NCBI GenBank assembly: GCA_964448115.1
Contig: CAYUVA010000008.1
Coordinates: 1 to 64,000 of the forward strand
Direction: 5' to 3'
Length of the DNA: 64,000 nt
Source of the DNA: an uncultured bacterium
GTDB lineage: Bacteria > CAYUVA01
Under the pieces are notes generated by a model. The model had not been told where the DNA came from and did no database searches. It saw only the letters and a list, made by a program, of their open reading frames with translations. A program made the position numbers and the translations under genes. Positions within the stretch are counted from its first letter, which is position 1. Each line of letters opens with the position of its first letter. This document shows positions 16,625 to 44,886 of this stretch, one piece after another.

Positions 16625-16913
16625 TCCGAGAATAGGAAAACCTGTCAGGCATCCACCATCGAAGTGGCTCTGCCTGCTATAACAGTATATGCAGCTCCAG
16701 GCGATCTTGTTAAGCAGGACGCCTGGAGTTGCTATGAATAGCTTTATTAGATCGCTGGCAAATACAACCTTGAGCATTGAAAAAACGAACATTTGCATTT
16801 GTGATGAATCTTATATATACAAAGCAGCGATTTGATGTTCGAGCCGATGGTAGTTACAGAGCCAAGAATTGAAGATCAACCGGCTAACTGATGCAGTCTG
16901 GCGGAGAACCTGG

Positions 16914-17201
16914 ATGTCGAACAAAAGCGAAGAAAAACCTTGCTGTCCTTACTGTGGGAATGCCTTGAAGAAATGGAGATGCCCACCGGATTCATCCTGG
17001 GGAGTAGAATTTCAATGGGTATGTTTCAATGATCAATGCGAATACATGTTAAACGGCTGGAAGTGGATGATGGCTAAATATAGAGTCAGTGCCTCATACC
17101 GCTTCCGCCTGAATCCCAAGACCGGCGAGACGGGTCCCATCCCCATCTGGTCTTTATCCGCCCTTAAAAGTTCAATAATCGAAGAAGAGGAAGATGACTG
17201 A
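16914..17201 (+). CDS. Small Cys-rich (zinc-ribbon-like) hypothetical protein
   Basis: ATG 16914 after GGAGA; CPYCG...W...SWG.EFQWVCFNDQC.Y..GW.WM; overlaps the next gene. Confidence 0.75.
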   Translation: MSNKSEEKPCCPYCGNALKKWRCPPDSSWGVEFQWVCFNDQCEYMLNGWKWMMAKYRVSASYRFRLNPKTGETGPIPIWSLSALKSSIIEEEEDD

Positions 17202-18027: not shown

Positions 18028-18135
18028 GATAGTATCTTTATCACGGGAGCAGATGGAAAGATATGTTTTTTAGGTTCAACACTCCCTTTAGGATAAAAGA
18101 GAATTAGATTACCCAAAACCAAGGAGTACCGTGAA

Positions 18136-19413: not shown

Positions 19414-19417
19414 TGAG

Positions 19418-21574: not shown

Positions 21575-21585
21575 GGAAGTGAGCC

Positions 21586-22701
21586 ATGAGTAAACAGATG
21601 TACATAGAGCCGAAGACAGACTTTATCAAGGATATCATCGACCTTGGCGGTCAAGACCTTAAGAAGTGCTATCAGTGTGCTACCTGCTCGGTGCGCTGTG
21701 CCATCTCGCCGGATGAGAATCCCTTCCCCCGCAAGGAGATGATCTGGGCGCAATGGGGTCTGGAGGACAGGTTGATCGCCGACCCGGATGTCTGGCTTTG
21801 CCACCAGTGCAACGACTGCACATCATATTGTCCCCGCAAAGCCAAGCCGGGTGATGTGCTCGCCGCCATCAGGCGCTATACAATCAAGCATTACAGCAAG
21901 CCGAAGGCATTGGTAGAGTTCATCAACGACAGGGCTAACCTGCGCTGGCTTTTCATCATACCAGCCATAATCATCTTTCTTTTCGTGGTCGCCTTTGGCA
22001 GCCTCTTTCCGGCTGGGGATGTGGAGTACAGCCATTTCTTTCCGCATGCTCCTTTGATCTTTTTGTACACACTGGCATTCGGATTAGCAGTGGTCTCGGC
22101 GGTGAATGGCGGTTACCGCTACTTCAATGACATGATGATCACCAACAATGCCAAGCCGAAACGGAGCCTGAAGGATGCTATATGGCTGACCTTGAAGGAG
22201 ATCTTCACCCACGACAAGTTCAAGGACTGCACCACCAGCAACTACCGCTACTTGGCTCATCTAGGGATGTTTTATGGCTTCATCGGGCTGCTGATCACCA
22301 CTGGCTGGGCGGTGATCATGCTGTATGTCTTCCACTACTACCCCTTGAAGTTCTACGATCCTTTCAAGCTGCTAGGTAATCTTGCCGGGCTAATCTTCAT
22401 TCTAGGGTTGTTCATGGCGATCAAGTACCGCCTGGAGGAGGATGAGGACCGCGGGGTCAACACCTACTTCGACTGGGTGTTTTTGTATGTGTTAATCGGG
22501 GTTATCGCCACAGGCTTCATCGTCGAGTTCTCGCGCTGGATAAATGTGCGCATCTTCGCCTATCCTAGCTATTTCGTTCACCTTGTCTTGGTGTTCTTCC
22601 TGCTGATTTACTTCCCCTACACCAAGTTTGCACACATCATCTACCGCACGGTGGCGATCCTTTACTCGAAATACACCGATAGAGCCAAAGAGATAAGGTA
22701 A
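21586..22701 (+). CDS. qmoC: QmoC (HdrC-like Fe-S domain plus cytochrome b membrane domain)
   Basis: CYQCATCSVRC, FPRKEM.WAQWG, WLCHQCNDC..CPR, TM helices, PYTKFAH..YR. Confidence 0.95.
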   Translation: MSKQMYIEPKTDFIKDIIDLGGQDLKKCYQCATCSVRCAISPDENPFPRKEMIWAQWGLEDRLIADPDVWLCHQCNDCTSYCPRKAKPGDVLAAIRRYTIKHYSKPKALVEFINDRANLRWLFIIPAIIIFLFVVAFGSLFPAGDVEYSHFFPHAPLIFLYTLAFGLAVVSAVNGGYRYFNDMMITNNAKPKRSLKDAIWLTLKEIFTHDKFKDCTTSNYRYLAHLGMFYGFIGLLITTGWAVIMLYVFHYYPLKFYDPFKLLGNLAGLIFILGLFMAIKYRLEEDEDRGVNTYFDWVFLYVLIGVIATGFIVEFSRWINVRIFAYPSYFVHLVLVFFLLIYFPYTKFAHIIYRTVAILYSKYTDRAKEIR

Positions 22702-22711
22702 TAAAATCTGG

Positions 22712-22745
22712 AAACCCCCTCGGAATTGCTTCGAGGGGGTTTTTT
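22712..22745 (+). terminator. Rho-independent terminator after qmoC
   Basis: AAACCCCCTCGGA-attgc-TTCGAGGGGGTTT followed by a T tract. Confidence 0.85.
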
Positions 22746-22839
22746 AGATATATAACAAGATGGTTTGGAACATTAATGTTTCAAGATTGGAACAACTTAT
22801 GTTTCACACAGAACATGTAACAGCTTTGGAGAGTTAAAT

Positions 22840-23772
22840 ATGGGAGCTAGTCTGCTATACCTGTTGGTCTATGTATCGATAATCGTCTTCGTGGTAATGC
22901 TGGTAAGAAAGGGCATGAAATATGCCTCGACTCCGATTCATCTCAGGTGGGAGCTGTACCCGGTTGCTCATGAAGCCGAGCATGGCGAGCATGGCGGTTC
23001 TTACTTCGAGAATCTGGATTGGTGGACAAAGCCGATCAAGAAATCGCTGATCGGAGAGCTGAAGGCGATGATCCCGGAGATGCTCTGGATCAAGACGCTA
23101 TACGAACACAACCGCAGCATGTGGTACTTCTCTTTTCCGTTTCACCTCGGCTTATACCTGCTAATCGGTCTATTGGGGCTTCTGTTCATTGGTGGCATAT
23201 TCAATGTCTTCGGGGCTGCTGTTGCGCCTGGAAGCGGTGGACTGACCGCCCTGTTATACTACCTAACCATTGGGGTAGGATTTCTTGGCTTGACATTAGC
23301 TACTGCCGGCTGCATCGGCTTGTTGGCAAAGCGCCTATCAGACGAGAAGCTAAGGCAATACACCGCCTTCAAGGACTTTTTTAACCTGGCATTCATCCTG
23401 CTTGTCCTGTTGAGCTGGCTGTTCAGTTGGCTCTTTGTCGATCATGGCTTCGGTATGGCAAGGGAATTCGTTTCCAACCTGATCGCCTTCAAGGTAAAAG
23501 CTGGAATCCCCAGCGCAGCGGTAGGCTTACAGATGGCATTGCTTGCACTGCTGTTGAGTTACATGCCGTTTACCCACATGATGCACTTTTTAGCTAAGTA
23601 TTTCACCTTCCACCGTGTGCTTTGGGAGGATGAGCCTAACCTGGTCGGCAGCAAGCTGGAGGGCAAGGTTAAGGAGGTGCTCAGCTTCCCGGTGAGCTGG
23701 TCTGCGCCTCATATCAAGGGAGATGGGAAGAAGACCTGGGCTGAGGTTGTTAATGAAGAGATAGAAGAATGA
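22840..23772 (+). CDS. dsrM: DsrM-like membrane cytochrome b (NarI family)
   Basis: HLRWELYPVAHE, GGSYFE..DWW, FPFHLGLY, PFTHMMHF.AKYF.FH.V.W.DEPN, SWSAPHI. Confidence 0.88.
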   Translation: MGASLLYLLVYVSIIVFVVMLVRKGMKYASTPIHLRWELYPVAHEAEHGEHGGSYFENLDWWTKPIKKSLIGELKAMIPEMLWIKTLYEHNRSMWYFSFPFHLGLYLLIGLLGLLFIGGIFNVFGAAVAPGSGGLTALLYYLTIGVGFLGLTLATAGCIGLLAKRLSDEKLRQYTAFKDFFNLAFILLVLLSWLFSWLFVDHGFGMAREFVSNLIAFKVKAGIPSAAVGLQMALLALLLSYMPFTHMMHFLAKYFTFHRVLWEDEPNLVGSKLEGKVKEVLSFPVSWSAPHIKGDGKKTWAEVVNEEIEE

Positions 23773-23828
23773 GCCTAGTGTTCAAATGACTAAAGATTAA
23801 CGACTAACGATTATTCGAGGTTGAATTG

Positions 23829-25463
23829 ATGAGCAAATCGACAATGGAAAAGACCAAGAAGAAAGTAACCATACAAGATCTGAGCAGGCAGACCGAGGAG
23901 AATCTTATCGACATTAAGGCTGAGGATCTCATGCCCCTGCCCCCGCCTTATGACAAGCCGGAAAATGATCCCCTGTTCACCGAGCTGAAGGATGTTTACA
24001 AGGAGAAATACGAGACCTCGCTGGATGGCACGGTTGCCGTTGGTATCGAGCGTCCTTCCTCCAAAGAGCAAGAGGAACTCCTGGTGCAGAAGTTCCTTTC
24101 TGGCTTGCAAAAGCTGCTTTCCAAGACAGACAACTGGACATTCTTGCAGCCATTGATGCTGACCTTGGAGAACTGCGCCAAGTGCCAGACCTGCTCGCTT
24201 GCCTGTCCGGTCTTCGAGTCGAGCGGGCAGCAGGAGATCTACCGCCCCACATTCCGTTCCGAGGTGCTAAGAGCCATAATCCGCAAGTATCTATCTCCTG
24301 GTGGCAAGTTCTTCGGACGCTTCAATGGTAGCAACATCGACCTTAACTGGAAAACCATTGCCCGGCTCGCCGAACTTAGCTATCGATGCACCCTGTGCCG
24401 AAGATGCGCCAAGACATGCCCCATGGGGCTGGACAACGGTCTGGTTACCCATGAGCTGCGCAAGCTGTTCAGCCAGGAGCTGGGCATCGCCGCCAAAGAG
24501 TTACACGAGAAAGGATCAGTACAGCAGCTAAAGGTCGGCTCCAGCACCGGCATGACCAAGGCGGTACTTATGGACTCCATGGAGTTCATAGAGGACGACA
24601 TCAAGGAGATGACCGGCTTGGACATCAAGATGGTCTGGGATAAACCTAATGCCGATGTGCTACTCATCCACAACGCCGGTGAGATCCTCTCCTGGCCGGA
24701 GAATCCAGCCGCCTTTGCCATCCTGTTCGAGGCAGCGGGGATAAGCTGGACGATGAGCAGCGACCTGGTCGCCTATGACGCGGTAAACTATGGGCTATGG
24801 TATGATGACTTCCAGCTCGCCCGAGTAGCCTACAAGCATGTAGAGGCAGCCAAGAAGCTCGGCGTCAGGAAGATCATCATCGGCGAGTGCGGTCATGCCC
24901 ACAAGGCGCTAACAGTGGTCGCTGACCGCGTATTTCACTCCGAGTATAATGTGCCTAGGGAAAGCTCGATGACCTTCCTGGAGTACATCGTAAACAGCGG
25001 AAGGATAAAGTTCGACAGGGAGAGGAACAACTTCCCGGTAACCCTGCATGACCCGTGCAACCTAGTCAGGCTGATGGGAGTGGTTGAGCCGCAGAGAAGG
25101 ATACTGCGCAAGATCTGCACAGACTTCAGGGAGATGAGTCCACACGGAGTAGATAACTACTGCTGCGGAGGAGGATCCGGCTTTGCCATTATGAGCCCAT
25201 TCAACTTTATGGACTGGAGAGCGGTAATCTCAGGGCGCATGAAGCTAAAGCAGGTGCTCGATGTATTCGCCGATGTAATTGATCCCAGCATAAACAAGTA
25301 CCTGTGCGCACCATGTTCCAACTGCAAGGGACAAATCAGGGACCTGTTCCAATACTATGATGTCTGGGATAAATGCCGCATCAACTATGGTGGACTGGTC
25401 GAGCTTATGGTTAACGCCATGACCGACCTGAAAGATCCCTTCATCGAATGGGAATGGCATTAG
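23829..25463 (+). CDS. dsrK: DsrK-like CCG-domain Fe-S oxidoreductase
   Basis: CAKCQTCSLACP, CTLCRRCAKTCP, GECGHA, HDPCN, NYCCGGGSG, APCSNCKGQ; follows dsrM. Confidence 0.88.
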   Translation: MSKSTMEKTKKKVTIQDLSRQTEENLIDIKAEDLMPLPPPYDKPENDPLFTELKDVYKEKYETSLDGTVAVGIERPSSKEQEELLVQKFLSGLQKLLSKTDNWTFLQPLMLTLENCAKCQTCSLACPVFESSGQQEIYRPTFRSEVLRAIIRKYLSPGGKFFGRFNGSNIDLNWKTIARLAELSYRCTLCRRCAKTCPMGLDNGLVTHELRKLFSQELGIAAKELHEKGSVQQLKVGSSTGMTKAVLMDSMEFIEDDIKEMTGLDIKMVWDKPNADVLLIHNAGEILSWPENPAAFAILFEAAGISWTMSSDLVAYDAVNYGLWYDDFQLARVAYKHVEAAKKLGVRKIIIGECGHAHKALTVVADRVFHSEYNVPRESSMTFLEYIVNSGRIKFDRERNNFPVTLHDPCNLVRLMGVVEPQRRILRKICTDFREMSPHGVDNYCCGGGSGFAIMSPFNFMDWRAVISGRMKLKQVLDVFADVIDPSINKYLCAPCSNCKGQIRDLFQYYDVWDKCRINYGGLVELMVNAMTDLKDPFIEWEWH

Positions 25464-27488: not shown

Positions 27489-30400
27489 TCAATCCTCACT
27501 ATTCAGGTATGGATAGAGAAGACTTTCGGTGCCTGACTCCCCGCGGGCGATAAGCTCGATGAGATATTGACCTACAGCAGCGCCAACGCCTACATCAGCG
27601 CTGAAGACATACAATCCATCGCCTGCCACATCCCCAGGGTAGGTGCCATCATCATAGAGGAACACTCCCAATGGCTGACCGCCCAGCGCCATCTCCATCT
27701 CGCTGATCTGGTCCGTGGTGAAGGCGACCAGCATTAAAAATCCGCCGTTTGAGCTGCTTAGCCTGGTATTCATGTAACCACCGAGCATGATTACCGGTGG
27801 TGGCGCCTCGGTCGGCGTTGCGGTCAATGTCGCTGTCGGGGTTGGCTCTACGCTAGGCGTTAAGGTCGGTGTATAGGTCGGAAGAATGGTCGCCGTGGGA
27901 GTCGAGGTGGGTACGGTCGGTGTGGCAGTAAATGTGCTGGTGGGAATCAGCGTGGCGGTTGATGTTGCTGTGGTAGTAGGAGTTGGTGTCGCTTCAGGGG
28001 TATTAGTTATGGTTGGGGTGCTGGTCGGTGTTGAGCTTGGCTCGGCAGTTGGCGTGATAGTCGGTGTGCTGCTCGGCGCACTGGTCGGCGTTTGAGTGGA
28101 GGTCGGCGTATCGCTCGGTATTGGGGTTGCGGTCAGGGTTTGGGTCGGTGTGCTGCTCGGCGCACTGGTCGGCGTTTGAGTGAAGGTCGGCGTAGCGCTG
28201 GGAGGCACTAGAGTAGGTGTATTAGTAGCTGTCACGGTTGCGGTCGGACTGGCTGTCGAAGTTGTGGTCGGTGTTAGAGTCGCAGTCGCGCTCGGCACTG
28301 CGGTTGGGGTTGTTGTCGGGGTCATACTAGGCAAGTCTGTCGCTGTGGCGGTCGGTGTAGCCGTGTTCATAATTGTTGGTGTTGCGGTCGGAAGCGGCTG
28401 CTCAAAGGTTATAACCAGATTATAGTCCCCAGCGCAGCCATTGTAGCCATCCACTACAAGGTAATAATCCCCTGCCGAGAGCGTATTGCTCCTGAGATGC
28501 TCATCACCCCACAGGATACAAGAGTTCTCGTGGCATTCCTGGAGGAGGAAGATGTCTATATCGCATAGAAAATCGTACTCCAGGATTGATTCAATAATAA
28601 AATCGTTAGCTTGGCTAAAGGAATAGACTATCTCCGGCGCATCCATCTTTAACGGATGGCATGATGTGTATTTCTCTGCATTATTGCTGCCATTGTTCGT
28701 ATTGCCCTTGTAGGTGCCATCGCCTGTAATAGGAGTCGCTTCAGTGCAGACTAGGTAGCCGGTCGGCGTCGGCTGTCGCAGGACATCGAGGTCAAGCTCA
28801 TAGATAGGTCCCTGTGCATCATCGACTACAGCCCACAAGCTATCTTCATCCACTGCCAGTCCACTTATGCCGACATCGAACGGGAAGCCATCATAAGCAG
28901 CCAGGATCTCTCCCGAGGTAGTGAAGTGATAAAGATTTCCGCTCTCCCAGCCGCCGAACCAGAGGGTCTGATCATAAGGATCGTAAGCCATGCCGAACTC
29001 CCAGCCGCCAGAGGGGGACTTGAAGCTATCTACCAGGTTGCCATGAATATCGAACCTGCCGATGAAAGAGTAGTCGGTGAAAAGCTCGGCATCGAGGATA
29101 TTCTGCCAGAAGTGGCTTCCATCATAGGCGAGATCAGCCGGGAGCCCATACGCATAGAATCCATGATGGAACAGATCATACAGATCCATGGACCTGCCAG
29201 TAATGTTGCCATCTGTGTCGATCTCATAATTTGAGTATGTCTGATCAGCCGAGTACCAGACGGTCATCTCCTTGATGTCGTTCACGCAGGCAACACCATA
29301 TATCTGCGCATAATCAGCCGGATACGAGTAAAGCATAATGCCATCTTCGGTAATCACATCTATAGCGTTCAGGCTTTCATCCGCTACCCAGAGCCACGAA
29401 CCATCATGTCCTATACCAGCTCCAGACCATAGCTCGGGACCAGGATGCTTGAAACATTTGCTCACATAACTTGGTACATCTCTCAAGATCGCCTTAATTC
29501 GATAGGTTCCCACATCGCCCTCGAATCCATCCACCACTATGAAGTAGGTCTGTGCCAGGGCAGGGAAGTCGATAATGAAATCATCATCGGTATCCTCGTT
29601 GGTGGCATAAGCCAGGCATCGCTGTTCGCTGCACGAATCGAGCAGGAACATATCGAGATTGGCAGACAGCATGGTCAATTGAAGATCCAGGATCGAGCAA
29701 TCGGGTATCGTTATAGTGTGAATGATCTCCTTGCCCCAATAGTCTCTATAGGTGCAACTGTACTCCTCAACTCGATTATAGCCTGTATTCGTATCCCCAT
29801 AGTAGGCGACACCTGGGGTGAGCTGCACCACCGGTGAGCAGGTCATTGCCGGAGTGGCAGTGTTGGTCGGGGTTGGAGTAGCAGTCGGCGTGGCAGTGGC
29901 AACCTCGGTGGCAGTCGGGGTGGCGGTCGGGGTGGTGCCGGCTTTGAGGATATCGATGTCAATGCGCAGGATCTCGTTATCCGGCGATTCTATAGACACA
30001 TAAAGGTCGTTCTGAGATGTATCTATGCCCAAACCATTTATGCCGGCATTAAACGGGTAGTCGGTGTAGTAGCCCAGTACCGAGCCGCTAGTAGTGGTAT
30101 GATACAAGGCTCCGCTGCCGCCGCCGAACCACAGCGTGTTGTCCGAGGTATCGTAGCACAACCCCCACTCCAAGGTGCCCGATGGTGTGTTGAAGCTAGA
30201 TATCACATTGCCGGCAAAGTCCATCTGAACGATCTTGTACTCCTCTGGGAATACATTGACCACCGTCTGCCAGAGATAGGTTCCATCGAAGCCCATATCA
30301 AATACAAGCCAGAACTTGAACTGGCTCCAGAAGTCTATGTATGAGCCGGTGGGGCTTCCATCTGTATTTATCTCGAAGTCCATATCATCCGATGAGAACC

Positions 30401-32660
30401 AAAGCGTATCCGCCTTGGAGTCATTCACAAAAGCCAAGCCATAGGGCGAAACCTGCCAGTTCCACTTGTCCTTTGCTGGAAAGGAATCGTTCACGCTGAA
30501 GTCGCTTCCCAGCTTGTAGATCATCTTACCGTTCTCGTCAGCCATCCATAGGTAGCCATCGCCATAAGCCAATCCGCCCAGCGAATTGCGCTGCAGTTCA
30601 GTAAAACGGCTATGATCGGCTATATAAGCAGGCACCGAATATGTCGAGGCGGTGATTGTATAAGCTCCGGCAGCGCCATCATACCCATCGACGACCAAAT
30701 AGTATGTGCCCGGCTCAGCGAGGTAGGTCAGGAACTCTTCATCCTCCCAGTCGCTCCAGCGAATGCAGTCATGCTCGCTGCAACTGCCCAGCAGAAAAAG
30801 CCCCAGATCATCCCCCAACCCAGTAAGCGAAGCCTCCAGGATGCTCTGGCTGCCGATGGTAAAGGAGTGAATAACCTCAGGTCCGCTATAGTTCCACGAG
30901 ATGCAGCCGTAGAACGTAATATTGCTGTCAGCGCCGATAGTGGTGCCTGAATAGGGCACACCATCGCTAAGCGGTACCGGCGTGCTGCAATCGATAGCCG
31001 GGGTTGAAGTCGGCGTCGCCGTGGGGGTGCTCGATGGAGTAGGGGTTACCGTCGGCGTATCGGTGGGATAGATCACGCTGCGCAGATAGGTCAGGTTCAG
31101 CTCCAGGATATCATTGGTGCTGTTGTTGCAGGCTACAATTAGCTTGTTGTTCCCATAATCGATGGCAAGCCCTGCCGGACGGCACGCTTGGAGTGCCTCA
31201 TCCTTAATATGGCTGATTACATGCCCGAAGCAATTAGTGTGGTATATGTAATTCCCCAAGCCACCGTACCATATCGTGTCATCGCTAGTATCATAAGCCA
31301 GTGCTCGTTCATCAGAGTGCCGGGCAGACTCGAATGACCTGAGCACATTGCCATCATTATCTATCTTGGCGATGATATCGGGGTTGATGAATACCTGCCA
31401 GAAATAATCGCCATCCCACCCCATATCTGCGCCCCAAACCCAGGTGTTAAGCGCGGAAAAATCGATCTCCTCTCCTGTGTGGACTCCATCAGTGCCGATC
31501 TCGAAGTCCTTGTCAGCGCTCAGGCTCGAATACCAGAGATTGCCAGCTTTGGTACCTGGAACAAAGGTCAACCCCCAGGAACTGGTGTAGCTAAGCGGAT
31601 AGGTGGCAAGAATATTACCAGAGTGATCCACCTTGAGCAGACTATTGCCATTATAATCGACCAACCAGATATATGTGCCATCATAAGCGCATCCGGCGAT
31701 CGAATAGCCATCCAAGCTATCCAGGCTAACCTTGCTATCCACGAAGATACCGGTTGGCGTGGCGGTTGGCGTCGATGTCGGGGTGCGTGTCGGGGGAATG
31801 CCGGCAGCGAAGTTGGCGTTGAGAGTATATGAAGATGTGATGCCTGATGCACCATCGACCACAATATAATAAGTACCGCTGCTGACCGGAAACGACGAGA
31901 TAAGCTCATCGCCAGTGCCACTGGAGTCGCTGAAATCAAGGCAATCATACTCGCTGCAACCTCCGAGCAGCAGCAATGCTAGATCCGCACTCAAACCGGT
32001 CAGATTTACCGTCAAACCGCCATCTTCAGGGACATCGAAACTGTGCACCCGCTCCGGACCCGATAGTAGTCTCTCCAGGCAGTTGTATCTGAAGGCATTG
32101 CTGCTGCCACCACTTGTATCCCCCAAGTAAGGAGTATTGTTGGCAATGGGTATCGAGGAAGAGCAATCGAGAGCCTGGGTTGGAGTTGCAGTCGGAGTCG
32201 GGGTGTATGCAGTAAACGAAGCCCAGAGCGTATAATTGCCCGAAGCGCCCATCCAGCCATCGACAACTATATAATACATCCCCGGAGAGACGATCTCGAT
32301 GATCTCCTCTTGTTCCCAGTATTCACCGCTGGAGGCTATGCAGTCATCTTGATCGCAGGCGGACAGAAGCAGCAGGGTGAAATCCTCCTCCATCTCGGTG
32401 CAGATTATATGCAATGTGCCGTGAGCGGGAACATTGAAGGTATGCACCATATCCGGACCATTGAGTGAATTGGGATAGCAGCTATAGAGAGCAGCGTTTG
32501 CCGGTCCGCTCATATAACCACTATATTCAACACCATTCGTCAAAGGTATTGAGGAGCTGCAATCGAGTGGATACCACTTCTCGGCGATCGCCATACTTGA
32601 GGAAAAACAGGTAATAATAAAGATAAGAGGTATGATTCTATGGAACTCAGGTATTCGCAT
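27489..32660 (-). CDS. Large secreted modular surface protein (5 PPC-like beta-sandwich repeats, 3 beta-propellers, Pro/Thr linkers, C-terminal LYDDG..GD..GDG.Y domain)
   Basis: Signal peptide; five repeats ending YY/FIVVDG..G..G.Y; three propellers with G.AYDG.YLW blades; about 200-aa PT-rich tract; AAGGAG RBS. Confidence 0.85.
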   Translation of the reverse strand: MRIPEFHRIIPLIFIITCFSSSMAIAEKWYPLDCSSSIPLTNGVEYSGYMSGPANAALYSCYPNSLNGPDMVHTFNVPAHGTLHIICTEMEEDFTLLLLSACDQDDCIASSGEYWEQEEIIEIVSPGMYYIVVDGWMGASGNYTLWASFTAYTPTPTATPTQALDCSSSIPIANNTPYLGDTSGGSSNAFRYNCLERLLSGPERVHSFDVPEDGGLTVNLTGLSADLALLLLGGCSEYDCLDFSDSSGTGDELISSFPVSSGTYYIVVDGASGITSSYTLNANFAAGIPPTRTPTSTPTATPTGIFVDSKVSLDSLDGYSIAGCAYDGTYIWLVDYNGNSLLKVDHSGNILATYPLSYTSSWGLTFVPGTKAGNLWYSSLSADKDFEIGTDGVHTGEEIDFSALNTWVWGADMGWDGDYFWQVFINPDIIAKIDNDGNVLRSFESARHSDERALAYDTSDDTIWYGGLGNYIYHTNCFGHVISHIKDEALQACRPAGLAIDYGNNKLIVACNNSTNDILELNLTYLRSVIYPTDTPTVTPTPSSTPTATPTSTPAIDCSTPVPLSDGVPYSGTTIGADSNITFYGCISWNYSGPEVIHSFTIGSQSILEASLTGLGDDLGLFLLGSCSEHDCIRWSDWEDEEFLTYLAEPGTYYLVVDGYDGAAGAYTITASTYSVPAYIADHSRFTELQRNSLGGLAYGDGYLWMADENGKMIYKLGSDFSVNDSFPAKDKWNWQVSPYGLAFVNDSKADTLWFSSDDMDFEINTDGSPTGSYIDFWSQFKFWLVFDMGFDGTYLWQTVVNVFPEEYKIVQMDFAGNVISSFNTPSGTLEWGLCYDTSDNTLWFGGGSGALYHTTTSGSVLGYYTDYPFNAGINGLGIDTSQNDLYVSIESPDNEILRIDIDILKAGTTPTATPTATEVATATPTATPTPTNTATPAMTCSPVVQLTPGVAYYGDTNTGYNRVEEYSCTYRDYWGKEIIHTITIPDCSILDLQLTMLSANLDMFLLDSCSEQRCLAYATNEDTDDDFIIDFPALAQTYFIVVDGFEGDVGTYRIKAILRDVPSYVSKCFKHPGPELWSGAGIGHDGSWLWVADESLNAIDVITEDGIMLYSYPADYAQIYGVACVNDIKEMTVWYSADQTYSNYEIDTDGNITGRSMDLYDLFHHGFYAYGLPADLAYDGSHFWQNILDAELFTDYSFIGRFDIHGNLVDSFKSPSGGWEFGMAYDPYDQTLWFGGWESGNLYHFTTSGEILAAYDGFPFDVGISGLAVDEDSLWAVVDDAQGPIYELDLDVLRQPTPTGYLVCTEATPITGDGTYKGNTNNGSNNAEKYTSCHPLKMDAPEIVYSFSQANDFIIESILEYDFLCDIDIFLLQECHENSCILWGDEHLRSNTLSAGDYYLVVDGYNGCAGDYNLVITFEQPLPTATPTIMNTATPTATATDLPSMTPTTTPTAVPSATATLTPTTTSTASPTATVTATNTPTLVPPSATPTFTQTPTSAPSSTPTQTLTATPIPSDTPTSTQTPTSAPSSTPTITPTAEPSSTPTSTPTITNTPEATPTPTTTATSTATLIPTSTFTATPTVPTSTPTATILPTYTPTLTPSVEPTPTATLTATPTEAPPPVIMLGGYMNTRLSSSNGGFLMLVAFTTDQISEMEMALGGQPLGVFLYDDGTYPGDVAGDGLYVFSADVGVGAAVGQYLIELIARGESGTESLLYPYLNSED
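28060..28182. repeat. Internal direct repeat (39-bp identical core, 84-bp period) in the Pro/Thr linker
   Basis: GTCGGTGTGCTGCTCGGCGCACTGGTCGGCGTTTGAGTG at 28060-28098 and 28144-28182. Confidence 0.85.
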
Positions 32661-35303: not shown

Positions 35304-36359
35304 TTAGCCTCCTAGGTATCTAATGTAGATCGATTTTGCCATCTCTACATCTTCGGTGCCACGGATTTGTGCCCTGCCGTCCTGGTAGATGGTGATCTGG
35401 TACTCATCATCGCTGAACTTGATAAAATAAGGATTTAAGGTAACCTTGCCCAATGGCTGAAGCATCTCTGCAAGCCCTTTAAGATCAAACTCCAGCTTTC
35501 GTGGTGGATTCACCTGCACAGTGTTTCCCCCGCAGGTAGCTTCTGCTATCAGCTCATCCTTGTGATCGAGATACTCGTAGGTACCCTCCTTGCAGGCGAT
35601 ACATCCCATGGACGGCTCATACTCGGCGACGGTTATCTCGCTGAAGCTGGCGTTCCAAAGATCGACGGTAAGGATGCTTTTGCGCATGGCATCATGTTTC
35701 CCTGCAAGATACTTCATAGCTTCCAGCGCTTGTACAGCAGCAATGACTCTTGGAGCCGATGCAATTATCCCCACAGTAGCACAAGTTTGTGCATTGCCCG
35801 GCTCGCCATGATTCCCGAATAAACACCGAAAACAGAAGGTTTTGCCAGGTAGTATGTTATATGTCATTCCGCTAGCGCCCAAAACGCCTCCATAGATCCA
35901 TGGTATCCCCAGCTTCAGGGCTGCATCGTTGAGCAGAAAGCGCACATGGAAGTTATCGGTGCCATCCAAGATAATATCGAATCCTTCAAGCTGCTCTTCG
36001 ATGTTTGCAGGGCTAAGGCTCACCACGGATGCCATGATCTCTATAATGGGATTTATTGCGTTCAGTTTGCGTCGAGCAGCCTCAGCCTTGGGGAGGGCAT
36101 CGCTTATATCATCCATGTCAAACAGAGCCTGGCGTTGCAGGTTGGAAAGCTCCACGGTATCGCGATCAATGAGCTTTATCCTGCCGATTCCAGCCCTGGT
36201 TAATATATCAGCGATGGCGGTTCCGAGCGCCCCGCAGCCGACCACTATCGCAGAAGCATCCCCAAGTTTTCTTTGTCCCTCGATACCCAAATTGGGATAG
36301 ACTATCTGTCTTTGATAGCGTTTGTTCAGGTTCTGCTCCCCAGACTCATCCATGGCCAT
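35304..36359 (-). CDS. ThiF/MoeB family adenylyltransferase
   Basis: RYQRQI, VGCGALG, DRD.VELSNLQRQ.LF, DGTDNF..R, CFRC, TCATVG, C..C. Confidence 0.93.
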   Translation of the reverse strand: MAMDESGEQNLNKRYQRQIVYPNLGIEGQRKLGDASAIVVGCGALGTAIADILTRAGIGRIKLIDRDTVELSNLQRQALFDMDDISDALPKAEAARRKLNAINPIIEIMASVVSLSPANIEEQLEGFDIILDGTDNFHVRFLLNDAALKLGIPWIYGGVLGASGMTYNILPGKTFCFRCLFGNHGEPGNAQTCATVGIIASAPRVIAAVQALEAMKYLAGKHDAMRKSILTVDLWNASFSEITVAEYEPSMGCIACKEGTYEYLDHKDELIAEATCGGNTVQVNPPRKLEFDLKGLAEMLQPLGKVTLNPYFIKFSDDEYQITIYQDGRAQIRGTEDVEMAKSIYIRYLGG

Positions 36360-36408
36360 ACCTTACACGCATCTTTTTATTACCGGAAGGGATAAGTGTC
36401 AATCTCAA

Positions 36409-36437
36409 TTGACATGTATTACCAGTGCTTTTAAAAT
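36409..36437 (+). promoter_or_regulatory. Sigma70-type promoter of the three-gene AT-rich island
   Basis: TTGACA (36409-36414), 17 bp, TAAAAT (36432-36437); a second TTGACA on the minus strand (36402-36397) faces thiF/moeB. Confidence 0.7.
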
Positions 36438-36462
36438 AAAGACCGTGCAGAACAAAACAAAT

Positions 36463-36891
36463 ATGTCCAATTATATGCCAGATTATTTTGATGCTGCAAA
36501 ACGGCATTGGGAAGATGGCGAGTTATTGATGGAAAACAGCCGTTTGGCTAATGCTGATCAACTTTATGGTTTATCAGCGGAATGTGCGCTAAAGGCTGTT
36601 ATGTATGGATTGGGCATGCAACTTACATCTGAAGGATTACCTGAACGACCATACAGAGTGCATATTAATGATTTGTGGGATGAATTTATCACTTTCGCAG
36701 ATGATAGAGAAGGAGCTAGATATAGCGATTTTCTAAGGATTTCGTTGACAAACGATTTCAACGATTGGGATATAAGCCAACGATATATAAATCGAGCAAT
36801 GATAAATAATGGAGCTGTTCAAAGGCATAGAGATGGGACTATAAAGACAATAACTATACTTGAGCTAGCATTGGTGGATGGGATTGTTTGA
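36463..36891 (+). CDS. HEPN-like protein
   Basis: Helical pattern DAAKRHWEDGELL...A..LYGLSAECALKA...HINDLW...W.ISQRY; true start is probably ATG 36463 or 36475, not the TTG at 36322. Confidence 0.65.
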   Translation: MSNYMPDYFDAAKRHWEDGELLMENSRLANADQLYGLSAECALKAVMYGLGMQLTSEGLPERPYRVHINDLWDEFITFADDREGARYSDFLRISLTNDFNDWDISQRYINRAMINNGAVQRHRDGTIKTITILELALVDGIV

Positions 36892-38210
36892 TGAATAAGC
36901 AACAAATAGTAATGTTCAGCCAGGCTCTTGATAATGCAGTCAAAATGACAAAAGAGCTTGGAAGATCTCTGAAAAAGGAGATAATGCTAGTTCGTGATCT
37001 CTCTGGTCGTATTCGTGTCTTGCTGCCCGGCATTAATAGTGATTACAAGATGAATAAATTGAACCAGTTTGCTCAAGAACTTGCTGCTGCACTTGGTGCC
37101 TATGGATATCCTCCCCAAAGAACCGTGTTATTTGCTGATGAATTGAGCACTGGGAATGATTTTTTTATTTCGGATGATCGGCAGTTAATAGATGATGAAC
37201 ATGGGGTAAAAATCTACCTTCTTGACAGGCAAATCATGGGTCATGACTGGATGCGAATGCCATTGAAGAGAAAAACAAGTATTCCACGAGTTACCTTTTA
37301 TGGAATAAAAGGAGGCGTTGGACGCTCGACAGCACTAATAATATGGGCATGGAAACTGGCTGTAAATGGTAAAAAAGTATTAATTGTCGATATCGATCTC
37401 GAATCTCCCGGTACTAGCAGTACTTTACTTCCCAAAGATAGTATGCCCGATTATGGTATCGTGGATTGGTTTGTCGAAGATATGGTCGGTCAAGCTGAAG
37501 AAGTGGAGAAGGATATGATATCCTCCAGCCCGCTAGCAAAGAATCTGAAAGGTGAAATACGAATAATGCCCGCCTATGGGGCAAAGACCAAGGATTACCT
37601 GATCAAATTATCCAGATGTTATTCCCAAATCGGAGGAGATAATAAGAAATCCTGGGCTGAACGACTTAATACATTGGTAGAACATGCAGAAGAAAAAGAG
37701 ATACCCGATTTGGTTATTATAGATAGTCGAGCAGGGCTTCATGACATCGCGGCAGTAACCGCTACCAGGATGGATGCAACCGTTTTTCTTTTCGCCGTCG
37801 ATTCAATTCAAACCTGGAATGCTTACACTTTTTTATTTGAACAATGGAACAAACATCCAAACATAAATGATTTTAGAAATAATCTACAGATAGTTGCCAG
37901 CATGATACCTGAAACAGGAAGAGAGGATTATCTTACGAGATTCAAAGAAAATTCATGGGATCTATTTCGAGAACAAGTTTATACTGAAATTCAAGCTGGG
38001 GAATTAGATGAAGACTTCAGTTATGATCTTGAAGAACAAGATGCGCCCCACTATCCACTAACTATTTATTGGCATCGGGCATTGCAAGAGTTTAATCCCT
38101 GTCATACCTCCCAAGGAATTGATGTACAAACAGCCCAGGAAGCTATGGGTGAATTCTTCAAAGGCATTAAAAAGAAAAAGTTGATTAATTGGGTTGAAAG
38201 CAATGAGTGA
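36891..38210 (+). CDS. ParA/MinD-like ATPase with variant Walker A (KGGVGRST) and an N-terminal extension
   Basis: VTFYGIKGGVGRST, VLIVDIDLESPG, VIIDSRAGL; TGATG overlap with the upstream gene. Confidence 0.85.
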   Translation: MNKQQIVMFSQALDNAVKMTKELGRSLKKEIMLVRDLSGRIRVLLPGINSDYKMNKLNQFAQELAAALGAYGYPPQRTVLFADELSTGNDFFISDDRQLIDDEHGVKIYLLDRQIMGHDWMRMPLKRKTSIPRVTFYGIKGGVGRSTALIIWAWKLAVNGKKVLIVDIDLESPGTSSTLLPKDSMPDYGIVDWFVEDMVGQAEEVEKDMISSSPLAKNLKGEIRIMPAYGAKTKDYLIKLSRCYSQIGGDNKKSWAERLNTLVEHAEEKEIPDLVIIDSRAGLHDIAAVTATRMDATVFLFAVDSIQTWNAYTFLFEQWNKHPNINDFRNNLQIVASMIPETGREDYLTRFKENSWDLFREQVYTEIQAGELDEDFSYDLEEQDAPHYPLTIYWHRALQEFNPCHTSQGIDVQTAQEAMGEFFKGIKKKKLINWVESNE

Positions 38211-39666
38211 GTCTATATTCCCAATTGATGATATAAGAAAACTTATTATAGAAGCCATTCCAGGGCAAATAGCAAGTCCTGATGTTAAATTACCTTATCG
38301 GTATATTCCTGAAACACACTGGAAAGCATTGCATCCCGACAATGCATTAGTTGAAGGGATCCGAGGATCAGGGAAAAGCTTTTGGTGGAAGGTTTTACAG
38401 GATCCAAGATTTCGAGCAATAGTAGGGCATTTTCTACCTAAAACAGGAATCGATAAAAATACAATAGTTTCTGCTGGTTTCGGAGAGATTTCCTCACCCG
38501 ATGACTTTCCGGGGAAAGATATACTCTCCAATTTATCCAGTAAACACGATTCAAGGCAAATATGGCGTACAATTATTTTTTACCATGTTTGCAAGGAAGC
38601 AAAGAAAGATATCATTGCTAACCAGGATATGTGGAAAGATAGGATAGAATATGTAATAAACAATCCAGAGAAGGTAGAAAAAACATTTTATGAGATCGAT
38701 CAGGGTCTTGAAGAAAAAAAGGTCTATCATCTCATTCTTTTCGATGCCCTGGATCGGGCTGCTGATAATTGGAAAACCATGAGAAATTTGATTCGAGGTC
38801 TTTTACAAGTGTTATTGGAGTTCAAGTATTATAAACGAATTCGCGCTAAAGCATACCTGAGAACCGATCAAATATCAGATCCATTAGTTGCTGATTTTCC
38901 TGACTCATCTAAATTACTAAGCGATAAAATGGAATTACGATGGCCCCGAAATGAATTGTATGGGTTACTTTGGCAGTATCTTTGTAATGAGAGCCAATAT
39001 GGAGAAGAATTTAGGGACGGATGTAACAAGCTGTTAGAAATTAAGTGGAATAAATATAACAATATTTGGATCGTACCAAAAGAAGCGATAGAAGAAAAAG
39101 CGCAAAGAGAGATTTTTAATCAAATCGCTGGACCTTGGATGGGAAAAGACCGTCGCCGTGGATTCCCCTACACTTGGTTACCAAACCATCTTGGAGATGC
39201 TACGGATCAAGTAAGTCCTAGAAGCTTCTTAGCCGCGGTGCGACATGCTGCTGAAGACAGTATTAAAATCGAGTATGAAAAGTATCCTTTGTATTATGAG
39301 AGCATAAAAAGGGGGGTTGCTGAGGCATCGAGAATTCGGGTTCGTGAATTAAAGGAAGACTACCCTTGGGTGGATAAGTTGATGAATCCCCTTTCTGGAA
39401 TGTCTGTACCTTGTGATATTAAGGAAATCAAGATGAGATGGACTGATAGCGATACCTTGGGGAATCTTGAAAGGCAGATTGAAAACGAAGAACTTAAACT
39501 TCCGCCAGCTCATTTAACTGAGGGCGCTGATGGGGTAATTAAAGATCTAATACAATTAGGTATTTTTAGACTGATGAAAGATAGCAGAGTAAATATACCG
39601 GATGTGTATCGGGTAGGATATAATCTAGGTAGAAGGGGCGGCGTAAAACCTGTTGCTCGCTATTGA
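38203..39666 (+). CDS. P-loop NTPase of unknown family
   Basis: Walker A GIRGSGKS, Walker B LILFDALDR, K.YLR.D, SPRSFL, C-terminal P.VYR.G..L.RRGG; overlaps the upstream stop. Confidence 0.8.
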   Translation: MSESIFPIDDIRKLIIEAIPGQIASPDVKLPYRYIPETHWKALHPDNALVEGIRGSGKSFWWKVLQDPRFRAIVGHFLPKTGIDKNTIVSAGFGEISSPDDFPGKDILSNLSSKHDSRQIWRTIIFYHVCKEAKKDIIANQDMWKDRIEYVINNPEKVEKTFYEIDQGLEEKKVYHLILFDALDRAADNWKTMRNLIRGLLQVLLEFKYYKRIRAKAYLRTDQISDPLVADFPDSSKLLSDKMELRWPRNELYGLLWQYLCNESQYGEEFRDGCNKLLEIKWNKYNNIWIVPKEAIEEKAQREIFNQIAGPWMGKDRRRGFPYTWLPNHLGDATDQVSPRSFLAAVRHAAEDSIKIEYEKYPLYYESIKRGVAEASRIRVRELKEDYPWVDKLMNPLSGMSVPCDIKEIKMRWTDSDTLGNLERQIENEELKLPPAHLTEGADGVIKDLIQLGIFRLMKDSRVNIPDVYRVGYNLGRRGGVKPVARY

Positions 39667-39697
39667 AAATATCTTTTCATAACAGCCATCTTCTTTT

Positions 39698-41179
39698 TCA
39701 GCTCGTCTCGCTTTTGATGAACATGGGGATCTCTTCCTCGCGGCTTTCGAGATCTGCCGGCTTTTTGATGGGCATCTTGATGGTGAAATGAGTGCCAACA
39801 TCCTCCCGTGAATCGACCTTGATAAAACCTCCATGCTTCTGGACTATCTTGTTGGAAATAAACAGCCCTAAGCCGGTACCTCCCAGCCCCTTTGATGAGA
39901 AAAACAGGCTGAAGATCTTCTCCCTGGTCTCCCTGTCCATGCCGATGCCGTTGTCATCTACCTCGAAGATGATCCAATCAGCTTCCTTTCCCACCGAGAA
40001 GATCACCTTGTGCTCTGATTTTTTCTTGTCCATGCGGCAAGCATCAAAGGAGTTCTCCAGGATGTTGACCAGCATGGAGCGAACCGCCTGATAATCAGCC
40101 TCGAACTCACCGACTGCGGGATCGAACCGGGAGATGAACTCGACCCCTAGGCTTTTAGCCTTGTCGGTGAAATTATCATAGACCTCCCTAGCCAGGGATA
40201 AAACCTTGTGGGTCTCCCAATTGAGCTGCCTGTCCTTTGCATAGTAAAGTATATCCATAACCATGTTTCGGATGCGCTCCACATTGCGCTGTACCATTGC
40301 CCAGCCCTTCAGTATCCGCTGTTGATCGTCCTTTTTTATCCCGCTATTGACCATATAGATACCGCCCTCCAAGCCGGTGAGCAGCCCCTTGATACCATGA
40401 GAGATCGAGCCGACCAGCAGCCCGGTCGAGGTCAGTTGATTCTGCAATTGCCTGATGGGCGTGATGTTATTGGACATCTCCATTACCAGCATAACATTAC
40501 CATTCTGATCCTTTATCGGCACCGATGTTACCCAGACATTGAGCCGTCTGCCATCTTTGGTGGTAACCACCTCCTCGTGGTGGTAGGTCTTGCCATCCTG
40601 GAAGATATCCTTGACCTTGCAGGGGATGCACGGCTTGTCTCGGTGCTTGTAAACCTCGTAGCAGTAGCCCTTGGGATAGCCGAAGTCCTCACGGAACATC
40701 TTGTTTGCCTCCACAAGGCGCAGGTCCTTGTCCTGTATGGAGATATAGCAAGGGACGACCTCGAAGAGCTTGCGGAGTTGATCGGATCGCTCCCGGAGCT
40801 GCTCCTGGAGCAGCTTGACCTCGGTAATGTCGGTGAACATCTCCATTACCGCTATGATTCTCTCCTGATCGTCTTTGATTGGGGTGGTATGGACCATTAC
40901 CGGTATTTCAAGCCCCTGTTGAGTGATTATGACCTCCTCGCTGCCATGTCTTAATCCGTCATTGAAGGTCTTTTCCACCGGGCAGTCGGTGCACTTCGAG
41001 TCTCTCCCCTTGTAGATTTCATAGCAGAACTCACCAGGTTTTTCGCCAAAGTCATCGCGAAATCTCCCATTTGCCTCGATGATACGAAAATCCCTGTCTT
41101 GTATGGAGACATAGGCGGGTATTTCATCGAACAGCTTCTTATAGGGGAGAGAATTGGTCTGAGATCTTTCGATGGTCAT
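39698..41179 (-). CDS. Cytoplasmic PAS-PAS sensor histidine kinase
   Basis: Two PAS domains, each with CY..Y..RD..C..C; H-box SISHGIKG; N-box NILENSFDA; DNGIGM; FFSSKG.GGTGLGL. Confidence 0.93.
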   Translation of the reverse strand: MTIERSQTNSLPYKKLFDEIPAYVSIQDRDFRIIEANGRFRDDFGEKPGEFCYEIYKGRDSKCTDCPVEKTFNDGLRHGSEEVIITQQGLEIPVMVHTTPIKDDQERIIAVMEMFTDITEVKLLQEQLRERSDQLRKLFEVVPCYISIQDKDLRLVEANKMFREDFGYPKGYCYEVYKHRDKPCIPCKVKDIFQDGKTYHHEEVVTTKDGRRLNVWVTSVPIKDQNGNVMLVMEMSNNITPIRQLQNQLTSTGLLVGSISHGIKGLLTGLEGGIYMVNSGIKKDDQQRILKGWAMVQRNVERIRNMVMDILYYAKDRQLNWETHKVLSLAREVYDNFTDKAKSLGVEFISRFDPAVGEFEADYQAVRSMLVNILENSFDACRMDKKKSEHKVIFSVGKEADWIIFEVDDNGIGMDRETREKIFSLFFSSKGLGGTGLGLFISNKIVQKHGGFIKVDSREDVGTHFTIKMPIKKPADLESREEEIPMFIKSETS

Positions 41180-43804: not shown

Positions 43805-44356
43805 TTAAACCTCCGTGCTTACAGTGTCGGTTTTATACTTGTTCAGCTCGACATCAAAGGGGATATACTCCCGATTGTCGATCACGCAAATAACAACTTC
43901 CTCGAGGCTCTCGTTGCCGTGCAAGAAGATATAGAGCGTTTCCAGCATCACCTTTGCGCAGACATCGAGCGGGATGGCGTAGAATCCGGCTCCCATTGCA
44001 GGATAGGCGACCTGCTTGATCCCGTTTTCAATAGCGATCTTAAGCGATGAGAGCATAGTATCCCTCAGCTTCCTCTCGGTATCTTCCTCGTTGAACTTGG
44101 GTCCAACCGCGTGAATGATATGCTTGGCTTTAAGCTCGCCGGCTGTTGAGAGCACCGCTTTGGTCGTTTCTACCGGTGCCAGCTTCTCCAGCTCTCTTTG
44201 TATGCTCGGACCTCCCCTGACGCTGATCGCATTTCCGAATCCAGCGCCCAGCTTCAGGTCATTGGTTGCGTAATAGATAAACGCCTCGAAGGGTTGATCG
44301 GTGATATCTGCTATCATCAGCTTGATCTTTGTTCGATTGAACATCGTTTCTCGCAT
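43805..44356 (-). CDS. Divergent macrodomain protein
   Basis: ADIT, GAGFGNAI..RGG, AGELKAKHIIHAVGP, VAYPAMGAGFY; the canonical VNAAN is replaced by IYYAT; ATG 44356 follows GGAGAGG. Confidence 0.85.
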   Translation of the reverse strand: MRETMFNRTKIKLMIADITDQPFEAFIYYATNDLKLGAGFGNAISVRGGPSIQRELEKLAPVETTKAVLSTAGELKAKHIIHAVGPKFNEEDTERKLRDTMLSSLKIAIENGIKQVAYPAMGAGFYAIPLDVCAKVMLETLYIFLHGNESLEEVVICVIDNREYIPFDVELNKYKTDTVSTEV

Positions 44357-44406
44357 AACCTCTCCTTTGCCTTGCATTGCTGTTGTTTGAATTGCATTTT
44401 AATTAT

Positions 44407-44886
44407 CTATTCAGTTGGTTTGACCATTGCCCTATTTACCTCCGAGTACCTGGCAAGCTCGCTGGAAAGCTCTTTTACACAGTCCTTGGATGCCAAGTCC
44501 TTGAGGGTGTACTCGTTGAGCACATCTATAATCTTGTGGTTGATCAAGCACCATACGAGACGGCATACGCAGTAGTCCGCGGACATGCAGTTATCTATGT
44601 TCTCGACGCAGTCAGTGATATTGATCGCTCCAATGGTTGCCTGTACGATGTCGCCTATGGTTATCTGGGAGGCTGGCCTTTTCAGCACATAACCACCTTT
44701 CTTGCCGGAAAAGCCCTTAATAAGGTCGCTGCTTTTAAGAGCCATTGCCAGTTGCTCCAGGTATTTCCTTGAGATGCGGGTTCTGATGGCTATGTCGTGT
44801 AGCGAGACCGGCTGGTTATCGATCGAGTGCTTGTTGATGTCGAGCAGCATCCTTACCGCATACCTCGCCCTGGTTGAGAGCCTCAC
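44407..44886 (-). CDS. Rrf2-family transcriptional regulator (IscR-like Cys ligands)
   Basis: MRLSTRARYA, SRKYLEQL, GKKGGY.L, C-terminal Cys cluster (DC...NC...YC). Confidence 0.92.
   Translation of the reverse strand: MRLSTRARYAVRMLLDINKHSIDNQPVSLHDIAIRTRISRKYLEQLAMALKSSDLIKGFSGKKGGYVLKRPASQITIGDIVQATIGAINITDCVENIDNCMSADYCVCRLVWCLINHKIIDVLNEYTLKDLASKDCVKELSSELARYSEVNRAMVKPTE

Follow-up and report, generated by a model that had tools for sequence, protein, structure and literature searches.

An AT-rich three-gene cassette matching the PDC-M28/HINPO type of candidate defence system

The 64-kb stretch of contig CAYUVA010000008.1 analysed here (positions 1 to 64,000, hereafter the window) comes from an uncultured bacterium and carries an AT-rich island of three overlapping genes. 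Their predicted products are a HEPN-fold protein (gene A), a ParA-like ATPase with an arginine-variant P-loop (gene B) and an ORC/Cdc6-STAND-type AAA+ ATPase (gene C). A sequence-only reading of the window had proposed a candidate uncharacterised defence module that it did not recognise as a named system. Our analysis supports the biological side of that proposal but not its claim of novelty: the three proteins match the PADLOC models PDC-M28A, PDC-M28B and PDC-M28C, and the arrangement is that of HINPO, a system named in a recent preprint (bioRxiv 10.64898/2026.10.19.760177). Judged by these similarities, the cassette is a diverged member of a known, computationally described candidate defence system and not a new kind.

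Results

A compositionally foreign cassette of three overlapping genes

The island holds three intact open reading frames (ORFs) in the order A-B-C, overlapping on the plus strand (Table 1). Its base composition marks the cassette as foreign. Between 36.3 and 39.7 kb of the 64-kb window GC content is 0.36-0.42, compared with about 0.50 outside, and the value for positions 36409-39666, 0.392, is the lowest among all 3258-nt segments of the window; the remaining 543 segments average 0.489 (sd 0.025, minimum 0.416). Third codon positions have a GC content of 0.29-0.34 in the three cassette genes, compared with 0.55-0.68 in the five genes around them. An AT-richness visible by eye, on which the sequence-only reading had remarked, is therefore borne out by both GC content and codon position. 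The gene overlaps also fall exactly where it had placed them: a TGATG at 36889-36893 forms the A/B junction, and at the B/C junction an ATG at 38203 precedes the B stop codon that ends at 38210.

Gene A could begin at ATG 36463 or at ATG 36475, which better fits where its homologues begin; no Shine-Dalgarno-like sequence lies ahead of either codon. The longest ORF for gene A opens at TTG 36322 and would overlap the start of the divergent ThiF gene, and the homologues favour one of the two ATG codons. The promoter that had been claimed as the island's own, TTGACA-17-TAAAAT, is present and close to consensus. Promoter-like sites are not enriched in the region, however (7, against 11.0 +/- 3.5 in shuffled sequence), so this candidate is plausible by its position only.

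Table 1. Coordinates of the island and its parts, numbered from the first letter of the window
Feature	Position	Strand	Remarks
AT-rich, compositionally foreign stretch	36250..39700		coincides with genes A-C and the upstream region
Sigma-70-like promoter candidate, TTGACA-17-TAAAAT	36409..36437	+	11/12 positions match; 26 nt upstream of the first gene A ATG
Gene A	36463..36891	+	142 aa; predicted stand-alone HEPN-fold protein; PDC-M28A match; place of PA-HEPN1 in HINPO
Gene B, whole	36891..38210	+	439 aa
Gene B, N-terminal domain	36891..37280	+	about residues 1-130, delimited from alignments; conserved F9, R35, D36, G39, D112, R113, W120
Gene B, ParA/MinD-type ATPase domain (residues 131-320) and C-terminal extension	37281..38210	+	NF047398, PDLC04559
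Walker A of B, KGGVGRST	37308-37331	+	Arg replaces the P-loop Lys
Gene C	38203..39666	+	487 aa; predicted ORC/Cdc6-STAND-type AAA+ ATPase: nucleotide-binding domain, helical lid, C-terminal winged helix
Walker A of C, GIRGSGKS	38356-38379	+	motif read in sequence
Walker B of C, FDALD (within LILFDALD)	38740-38754	+	motif read in sequence

The cassette is already catalogued as PDC-M28 and HINPO

Each gene matches its PADLOC model over nearly the full profile: gene A matches PDC-M28A (E 9.9e-43, profile positions 3-137 of 138), gene B matches PDC-M28B (PDLC04559; E 1e-148, 3-430 of 438) and gene C matches PDC-M28C (E 1.7e-175, 5-479 of 480). Payne, Hughes, Fineran and Jackson started from genes lying within BREX, DISARM and type I restriction-modification (RM) loci, predicted 145 'phage defence candidate' (PDC) systems from them and added these to PADLOC (bioRxiv 10.1101/2024.01.29.577857). 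The name PDC-M28 does not occur in the text of their preprint. The relatives of the cassette analysed here give the same guilt-by-embedding signal in BREX, DISARM and RM loci. The window copy itself is embedded in no defence system.

The second description comes from Li, Burroughs and Aravind, who surveyed ParA-like ATPases in immunity in a preprint of 22 October 2026 (bioRxiv 10.64898/2026.10.19.760177). Their ConB2 assemblage is marked by an arginine in place of the Walker A lysine and by a PG motif after sensor-1. Within it they place HINPO, a ParA with an N-terminal, inactive Pol-beta-type nucleotidyltransferase domain, which lies downstream of a new HEPN domain (PA-HEPN1) and upstream of an AAA+ ATPase of the ORC-CDC6/STAND clade; in some cases the ParA and this ATPase form one protein. 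They also claim an enrichment in multicellular bacteria. Window B carries both ConB2 marks, with KGGVGRST as Walker A and DIDLESPG as the PG-containing motif (R145 and P173 in 35/35 homologues, G174 in at least 90%). The cassette likewise shares the upstream HEPN protein and the downstream ORC/STAND AAA+ ATPase, and ParA-ORC fusions occur among its relatives. A conserved N-terminal domain of about 130 residues is present in window B as well; its nucleotidyltransferase fold is the preprint's assignment, not confirmed here.

Gene A: a HEPN fold with an unusual conserved site

The only Pfam match of gene A is HEPN_AbiV, below threshold (E 0.0074). The same model matches 18 of 35 family members, again below threshold (best 2.7e-5). 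An AlphaFold model built from 35 homologues has a mean predicted local distance difference test (pLDDT) score of 96.6, and when it is searched against the PDB with Foldseek, HEPN entries head the list, none at E<=0.001. The structural neighbours of A are largely HEPN domains paired with Pol-beta nucleotidyltransferases, among them TT1696, AF_0298, HI0074, SO_3166, an AMPylated HEPN toxin, a HEPN toxin with its MNT (minimal nucleotidyltransferase) antitoxin, LinB, ANT(4') and ANT(6). Csm6, AbiA, the AMPylated HEPN toxin, SO_3166 and AbiV stand lower in the ranking. Because the structural list is consistent and HEPN_AbiV recurs in half of the sampled family, a HEPN fold is the clear reading of the model. 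A PDB search with the A sequence profile gave no meaningful match (best E 0.25-0.41 over the PDB profile searches with A, C and the B N-terminus).

The family numbers 1315 representatives at E<=0.001, nearly all of them stand-alone proteins of about 140 aa. Ten positions are strongly conserved among 136 homologues: R14 (133), H15 (130), D18 (130), E40 (136), C41 (135), K44 (134), H67 (135), W102 (133), R107 (132) and Y108 (133). The window protein has R62-x4-H67, which fits the Rx4-6H spacing; an arginine four to six residues before H67 is found in only 11/35 and 37/136 homologues. The HEPN-like reading of this gene thus holds with a caveat: the fold and the residue pattern are conserved, but the His and Arg-Tyr residues on which it leaned form no family-wide Rx4-6H.

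The model puts H67 in the loop that follows the second core helix. This invariant histidine thereby occupies the topological place of the AbiV RNHKSKH motif, and the AbiV preprint describes R, H and their spacing as variable within the AbiV family. Compared with HEPN RNases in general (AbiV, HepT-MntA, Csm6, Cas13), A shares the helical fold but differs in having neither a conserved Rx4-6H nor HxY and in conserving the ten residues above instead. RNA cleavage by A is, on this modelling, possible and not established. Complex predictions of B with A as partner scored 0.31 and 0.28, against a mark of 0.32, in a run made without controls.

HepT-MntA, a type VII toxin-antitoxin system, combines an active MNT nucleotidyltransferase partner with an Rx4HxY motif whose tyrosine is modified. 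We considered a plain HepT-MntA pair for the island and rejected it: H67 is followed by I-N (HIN, no Tyr), there is no separate MNT gene in the cassette, and hhalign shows no similarity of the B N-terminus to the 27 MNT sequences compared.

Gene B: an arginine-variant ParA-like ATPase

Residues 131-320 of B score 188.1 bits against NF047398, 'KGGVGR-motif variant AAA ATPase', well above its cut-off of 90, and B also matches ParA/MinD-type Pfam models. On these profiles we assign B as a ParA/MinD-type ATPase with about 130 extra N-terminal residues. Arginine replaces the P-loop lysine (R145) in all 35 homologues, in which K140, G141, G142, G144, D167, D169, P173, R280 and G282 are also invariant; for G174 and D278 conservation is 90% or higher. 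Besides its Walker A, B has the motif DIDLESPG (DxD sensor plus PG) and the Walker B motif DSRAG. The variant motif, the extra N-terminal residues and the lack of a parB had all been noted from the letters of the window, and each stands: R145 is universal in the sample, and no ParB is encoded in the window.

ParABS systems have a KGGxGK[ST] Walker A and an adjacent ParB. B shares with ParABS and MinD ATPases the deviant Walker A with its first lysine (K140), the DxD sensor and a DSxAG-type Walker B. It differs in its arginine P-loop, in having no ParB or parS, in its extra N-terminal domain and C-terminal extension, and in its immune-type partners. A classical partition system was rejected on two counts, the replacement of the second lysine by arginine in 35/35 homologues and the absence of a ParB domain from the 45 other window ORFs scanned.

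The N-terminal part of B behaves in alignments as a separate conserved domain (Table 1), the one that Li et al. describe as an inactive Pol-beta-type nucleotidyltransferase (bioRxiv 10.64898/2026.10.19.760177). The PDB profile search gave no meaningful match for it, Pfam run on 35 members gave none, and the ESM Atlas gave no usable one. Aligned by hhalign against 27 MNT sequences, it produced nothing in global mode and a probability of 0.7% in local mode.

KGGVGRS-type ParA domains also occur at the N-terminus of giant NACHT proteins with WD40 or pentapeptide repeats (P0145, 1668 aa; P0147-P0151). Residues 9-251 of P0145 are 26% identical to B, and the protein fits the ParA-STAND receptor architectures of the HINPO preprint.

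Gene C: an ORC/STAND-type ATPase

Sequence searches place C at a distance from described families: KAP_NTPase matches at E 0.07, the P-loop ATPase family NF047389 ('Sll1717 family'), to which C is related, gives 69.8 bits where the cut-off is 75, there is no sequence-level match to NACHT or NB-ARC, and a PDB search with the C profile gave no meaningful match. The match of the structural model (pLDDT 93.7) to ORC/Cdc6-STAND AAA+ ATPases extends from the nucleotide-binding domain through the lid to the C-terminal winged helix. Foldseek lists the BREX ATPase BrxC first (E 2.2e-5), followed by Cdc6/Orc1 and PAB2304; NLR, Avs5 and CED-4 are among the further matches. We take C, as modelled, to be an ORC/Cdc6-STAND-type AAA+ ATPase with a winged helix. 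The intact Walker A and B motifs that had been read in this gene are indeed present. They belong to a set of family-invariant motifs comprising KGGVGRST in B, GIRGSGKS and LILFDALD in C and the pattern AECALKA...H...W...RY in A.

Relative to STAND/NLR-like sensors (Avs, bNACHT) and BrxC, C lacks both a repeat sensor arm and a fused effector, Magnetococcales excepted, and it needs partner genes. In metagenome-assembled genomes (MAGs) of Magnetococcales (L064:10001-13987, L071:10001-15373, L078:10001-15325 and L079:7890-12167) the C homologues reach 1328-1790 aa through a long C-terminal extension, which carries a calcineurin-like metallophosphoesterase and a NACHT domain. At L079 neither A nor B accompanies the long form.

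The triad is conserved across phyla

Relatives of C numbered 2921 at E<=1e-5 among 8000 scored, and they come from Planctomycetota, Nitrospirota, Desulfobacterota, Omnitrophota, Pseudomonadota and one Methanocalculus. The closest is 59% identical to C, and the cassette is 59-63% identical to its nearest relatives. We searched 185,579 species-representative genomes with two peptide patterns; 185 of the 349 matches encode a relative, giving at least 185 loci. Locus counts, and the L numbers given with them, rest on the best 80 of these 185.

Of the 80 loci, tblastn detects C in all, B in 77 and A in 72; the genes keep the order A-B-C and a common strand throughout, and the loci come from many phyla. 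Conservation of the triad across phyla, which the sequence-only reading had suggested testing, is therefore confirmed, with the A-B-C order in 72/80 loci. Overlaps of 4 nt join A to B in 54/70 loci and B to C in 44/77, with start codons chosen heuristically. All three genes in the window carry every family-invariant residue.

Eight loci have no A. Four of these are cut by contig ends (L017, L023, L045 and L058), at L037 tblastn finds none, and at L028, L079 and L080 the gene is missing despite room for it. The L028 locus (3572-11452), in a Thiotrichaceae MAG, has a C homologue (50% identical) without A or B directly downstream of a pPIWI_RE module, which consists of a pPIWI_RE_Z-domain protein and a pPIWI_RE Argonaute-like protein. 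At L080 (5166-11479), in a Lysobacter MAG, B and C occur without A, and the gene immediately upstream of B is an IcmF-like fused methylmalonyl-CoA mutase/MeaB.

B and C are fused in some relatives. Locus L066 encodes a B-C fusion of 919 aa, and a search for longer B relatives gave 19 clusters of B-C-sized fusions at E<=1.6e-68, 18 of them 912-946 aa long and one 773 aa. In the one fusion cluster that was checked, the C half is 48% identical to C over its full length.

Defence genes, plasmids and phages around the triad

Neighbourhoods were examined at the 34 loci whose sequence extends 6 kb or more to either side of the triad: the three nearest ORFs on each side, 203 proteins in all, were compared with PADLOC. 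Strong PADLOC neighbours were present at 12 of these 34 full-flank loci. The triad lies inside BREX at three of the loci, in the interval between PglX and PglZ (L019, L020) or between PglW-PglX and BrxC-PglZ-BrxD (L081). DISARM and/or type III RM genes stand beside or around it at L032, L059, L061, L065 and L066. The other neighbours are a type I restriction enzyme (L050), QatC/QatD (L075, L076) and HEC-01A (L038). Proximity to defence genes, which the sequence-only reading had also suggested testing, is thus seen at 12/34 loci, a descriptive figure, but no defence gene stands beside the copy in the window.

Among 72,556 plasmids, 22 carry a C homologue; 50,697 phage records gave no match to C. 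A conjugative IncF plasmid of Enterobacter asburiae (L112, NZ_CP063442.1, 73088-85271) has a 40% identical triad at 78224-81560, flanked on one side by a tyrosine recombinase and on the other by a TIR-domain gene, and a GNAT/DUF1778 toxin-antitoxin pair is close by. This locus is a small defence islet and a tractable homologue.

Flanks and host

As the sequence-only reading had it, the island is flanked by minus-strand genes. On the upstream side these are ThiF, a class-V aminotransferase/cysteine desulfurase and a radical-SAM gene; on the downstream side, the genes convergent with the cassette encode a PAS histidine kinase and a response regulator, which is HdrD-like and bears a receiver domain. 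The 45 other window ORFs that were scanned include no integrase, transposase, ParB domain or defence gene, the 64-kb window has no tRNA, and no direct or inverted repeats frame the island. The cassette is single-copy in the host genome. One DNA sequencing run contains the stretch and may be its source; no RNA run is listed as containing it. C was found in 0/40 other genomes searched, which share only a domain-level relationship with the host.

Elsewhere in the window, a dissimilatory sulfate-reduction cluster at positions 12884-25463 encodes an ATP sulfurylase (Sat), AprB/AprA-like proteins, Qmo-like flavoproteins with an FlpD domain and DsrMK-like proteins with CCG and nitrate-reductase-gamma domains. 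Given the Sat, AprBA and Qmo-like genes, we take the host to be a sulfate reducer. A 1723-aa ORF on the minus strand (27489-32660) has only a PPC pre-peptidase domain and a weak phytase-like match. A Macro-domain protein gene adjoining an Rrf2 regulator (43805-44886, minus strand) lies about 4 kb downstream of the island; Macro domains are present in some conflict systems, and no link to the cassette was found. Five PF01909 (minimal nucleotidyltransferase) matches occur in the host genome on contigs C14, C20, C23, C34 and C66, all away from the island, and are probably HEPN/MNT-type toxin-antitoxin loci.

Discussion

We favour the reading that the island is a horizontally acquired, intact immune cassette of the known PDC-M28/HINPO type, and we put its probability at roughly 0.7. 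The protein identities, folds, conserved gene order, B-C fusions and frequent defence embedding are established here; beyond them we infer the following mechanism. C would sense invader DNA or some other sign of infection; winged-helix ATPases of the ORC/Cdc6-STAND kind bind DNA or switch upon ligand binding, and close relatives of C in Magnetococcales are fused to a metallophosphoesterase and NACHT. B would be in physical contact with C and would dimerise or multimerise on a signal, and the arginine in place of the P-loop lysine suggests a slow, switch-like nucleotide cycle. The B N-terminal domain may contribute a second, nucleotide-type input. Switching of B would then release or activate A, which would cut RNA and stop the infected cell by abortive infection or dormancy. 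This exact division of labour, with C as sensor, B as switch and A as effector, is a tentative proposal, clearly less secure than the assignment of the cassette itself.

Several observations weigh against this picture. The Rx4-6H motif does not appear to be a family trait of A, and A may therefore bind rather than cut. The Pol-beta nucleotidyltransferase fold of the B N-terminus was not confirmed by the sequence and profile methods used here. C stands without A and B at L028 and L079, and B and C without A at L080. Strong PADLOC neighbours are missing from 22/34 full-flank loci; the 12/34 figure is itself descriptive, because L019/L020 and L075/L076 are related pairs and no background control for enrichment accompanies it. 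The copy in the window has no defence gene, integrase or tRNA within 64 kb. On the side of the literature, Payne et al. call the 145 PDCs untested (bioRxiv 10.1101/2024.01.29.577857), the HINPO preprint is computational (bioRxiv 10.64898/2026.10.19.760177), and our literature search did not find an experimental test of PDC-M28 or HINPO; the one archaeal survey that it turned up takes up PDC-M05 only.

The authors of the HINPO preprint cast the parts differently (bioRxiv 10.64898/2026.10.19.760177). They propose that C, on recognising invader DNA, seeds assemblies of B that cover or obstruct it, so that the ParA multimer would be the main effector and A a back-up or a non-catalytic binder of RNA or nucleotide, whereas we rank the HEPN protein as the main effector. 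The lack of a canonical Rx4-6H in most A homologues, the locus that keeps B and C without A (L080) and the B-C fusions in many lineages would suit their model. Yet A is kept in 72/80 loci, with four of the eight misses at contig ends, and its ten polar or aromatic positions, each conserved in at least 130 of 136 homologues, better fit an active or ligand site than a dispensable extra. The arginine P-loop, moreover, suggests weak hydrolysis, which would suit a switch over a dynamic polymer. On balance we find a ParA-multimer effector rather unlikely. The resemblance of A to HEPN domains from Pol-beta nucleotidyltransferase partnerships opens another route, in which A and the B N-terminus are a captured pair comparable to HepT-MntA or to two-domain aminoglycoside nucleotidyltransferases: the degenerate N-terminal domain would hold A inactive or share a nucleotide pocket with it, and the ParA-ORC switch would free A on infection. 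The Pol-beta fold that the preprint assigns to the B N-terminus and the translational coupling of A and B through 4-nt overlaps in 54/70 loci are consistent with such a pair. But the N-terminus has no sequence-level link to MNT (0.7% by hhalign against the 27 MNT sequences, nothing in Pfam or the PDB profile search), A has H67 followed by I-N where HepT has Rx4HxY, and the preprint itself casts the domain as a nucleotide sensor and not an antitoxin (bioRxiv 10.64898/2026.10.19.760177); we judge a captured pair unlikely. A sharper form of it seems to us just as improbable, namely that A is not a conventional HEPN RNase but one half of a disarmed couple with the B N-terminus, whose near-invariant pocket (R14, H15, D18, E40, K44, H67, R107 and Y108) would stay shut or read nucleotides until C detects invader DNA and the arginine-variant ParA opens it. 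A HEPN-to-nucleotidyltransferase contact is not proposed in the HINPO preprint (bioRxiv 10.64898/2026.10.19.760177).

Two further explanations would take the window copy out of immunity altogether or leave it idle. The triad could be an accessory module that works only with BREX, DISARM or RM machinery, in which case the orphan copy here would be inert or decaying. The position of the triad between PglX and PglZ or BrxC (L019, L020, L081) or inside loci of DISARM or type III RM, the rank of BrxC as the best Foldseek match of C, and the absence of BREX and RM genes from this window all point that way. Against it, 22/34 full-flank loci have no such neighbours, all three genes in the window are intact with every family-invariant residue in place, and those embedded cassettes that Payne et al. 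put to the test were functional when cloned by themselves (bioRxiv 10.1101/2024.01.29.577857); dependence on a host system is accordingly quite doubtful to us. Still less probable, and very unlikely by any measure, is a housekeeping or mobile-element role, for instance in partitioning or positioning DNA or in controlling replication by way of the ORC-like protein. It would draw on the membership of B in the ParA/MinD family, the resemblance of C to Orc1/Cdc6 initiators and the 22 plasmids that carry C homologues. There is no ParB or parS partner, however, the P-loop lysine is replaced by arginine in 35/35 homologues, the distribution is sporadic (C in 0/40 other genomes) and the composition foreign, and the triad is embedded repeatedly in defence loci, usually with its HEPN partner.

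The immune-cassette reading places the three genes in a widespread family that joins a ParA-type ATPase with an arginine P-loop, an ATPase of the ORC/STAND type and a HEPN protein whose conserved site is unusual. Within that family, the copy in the window is a clean, minimal three-gene example outside any defence island.

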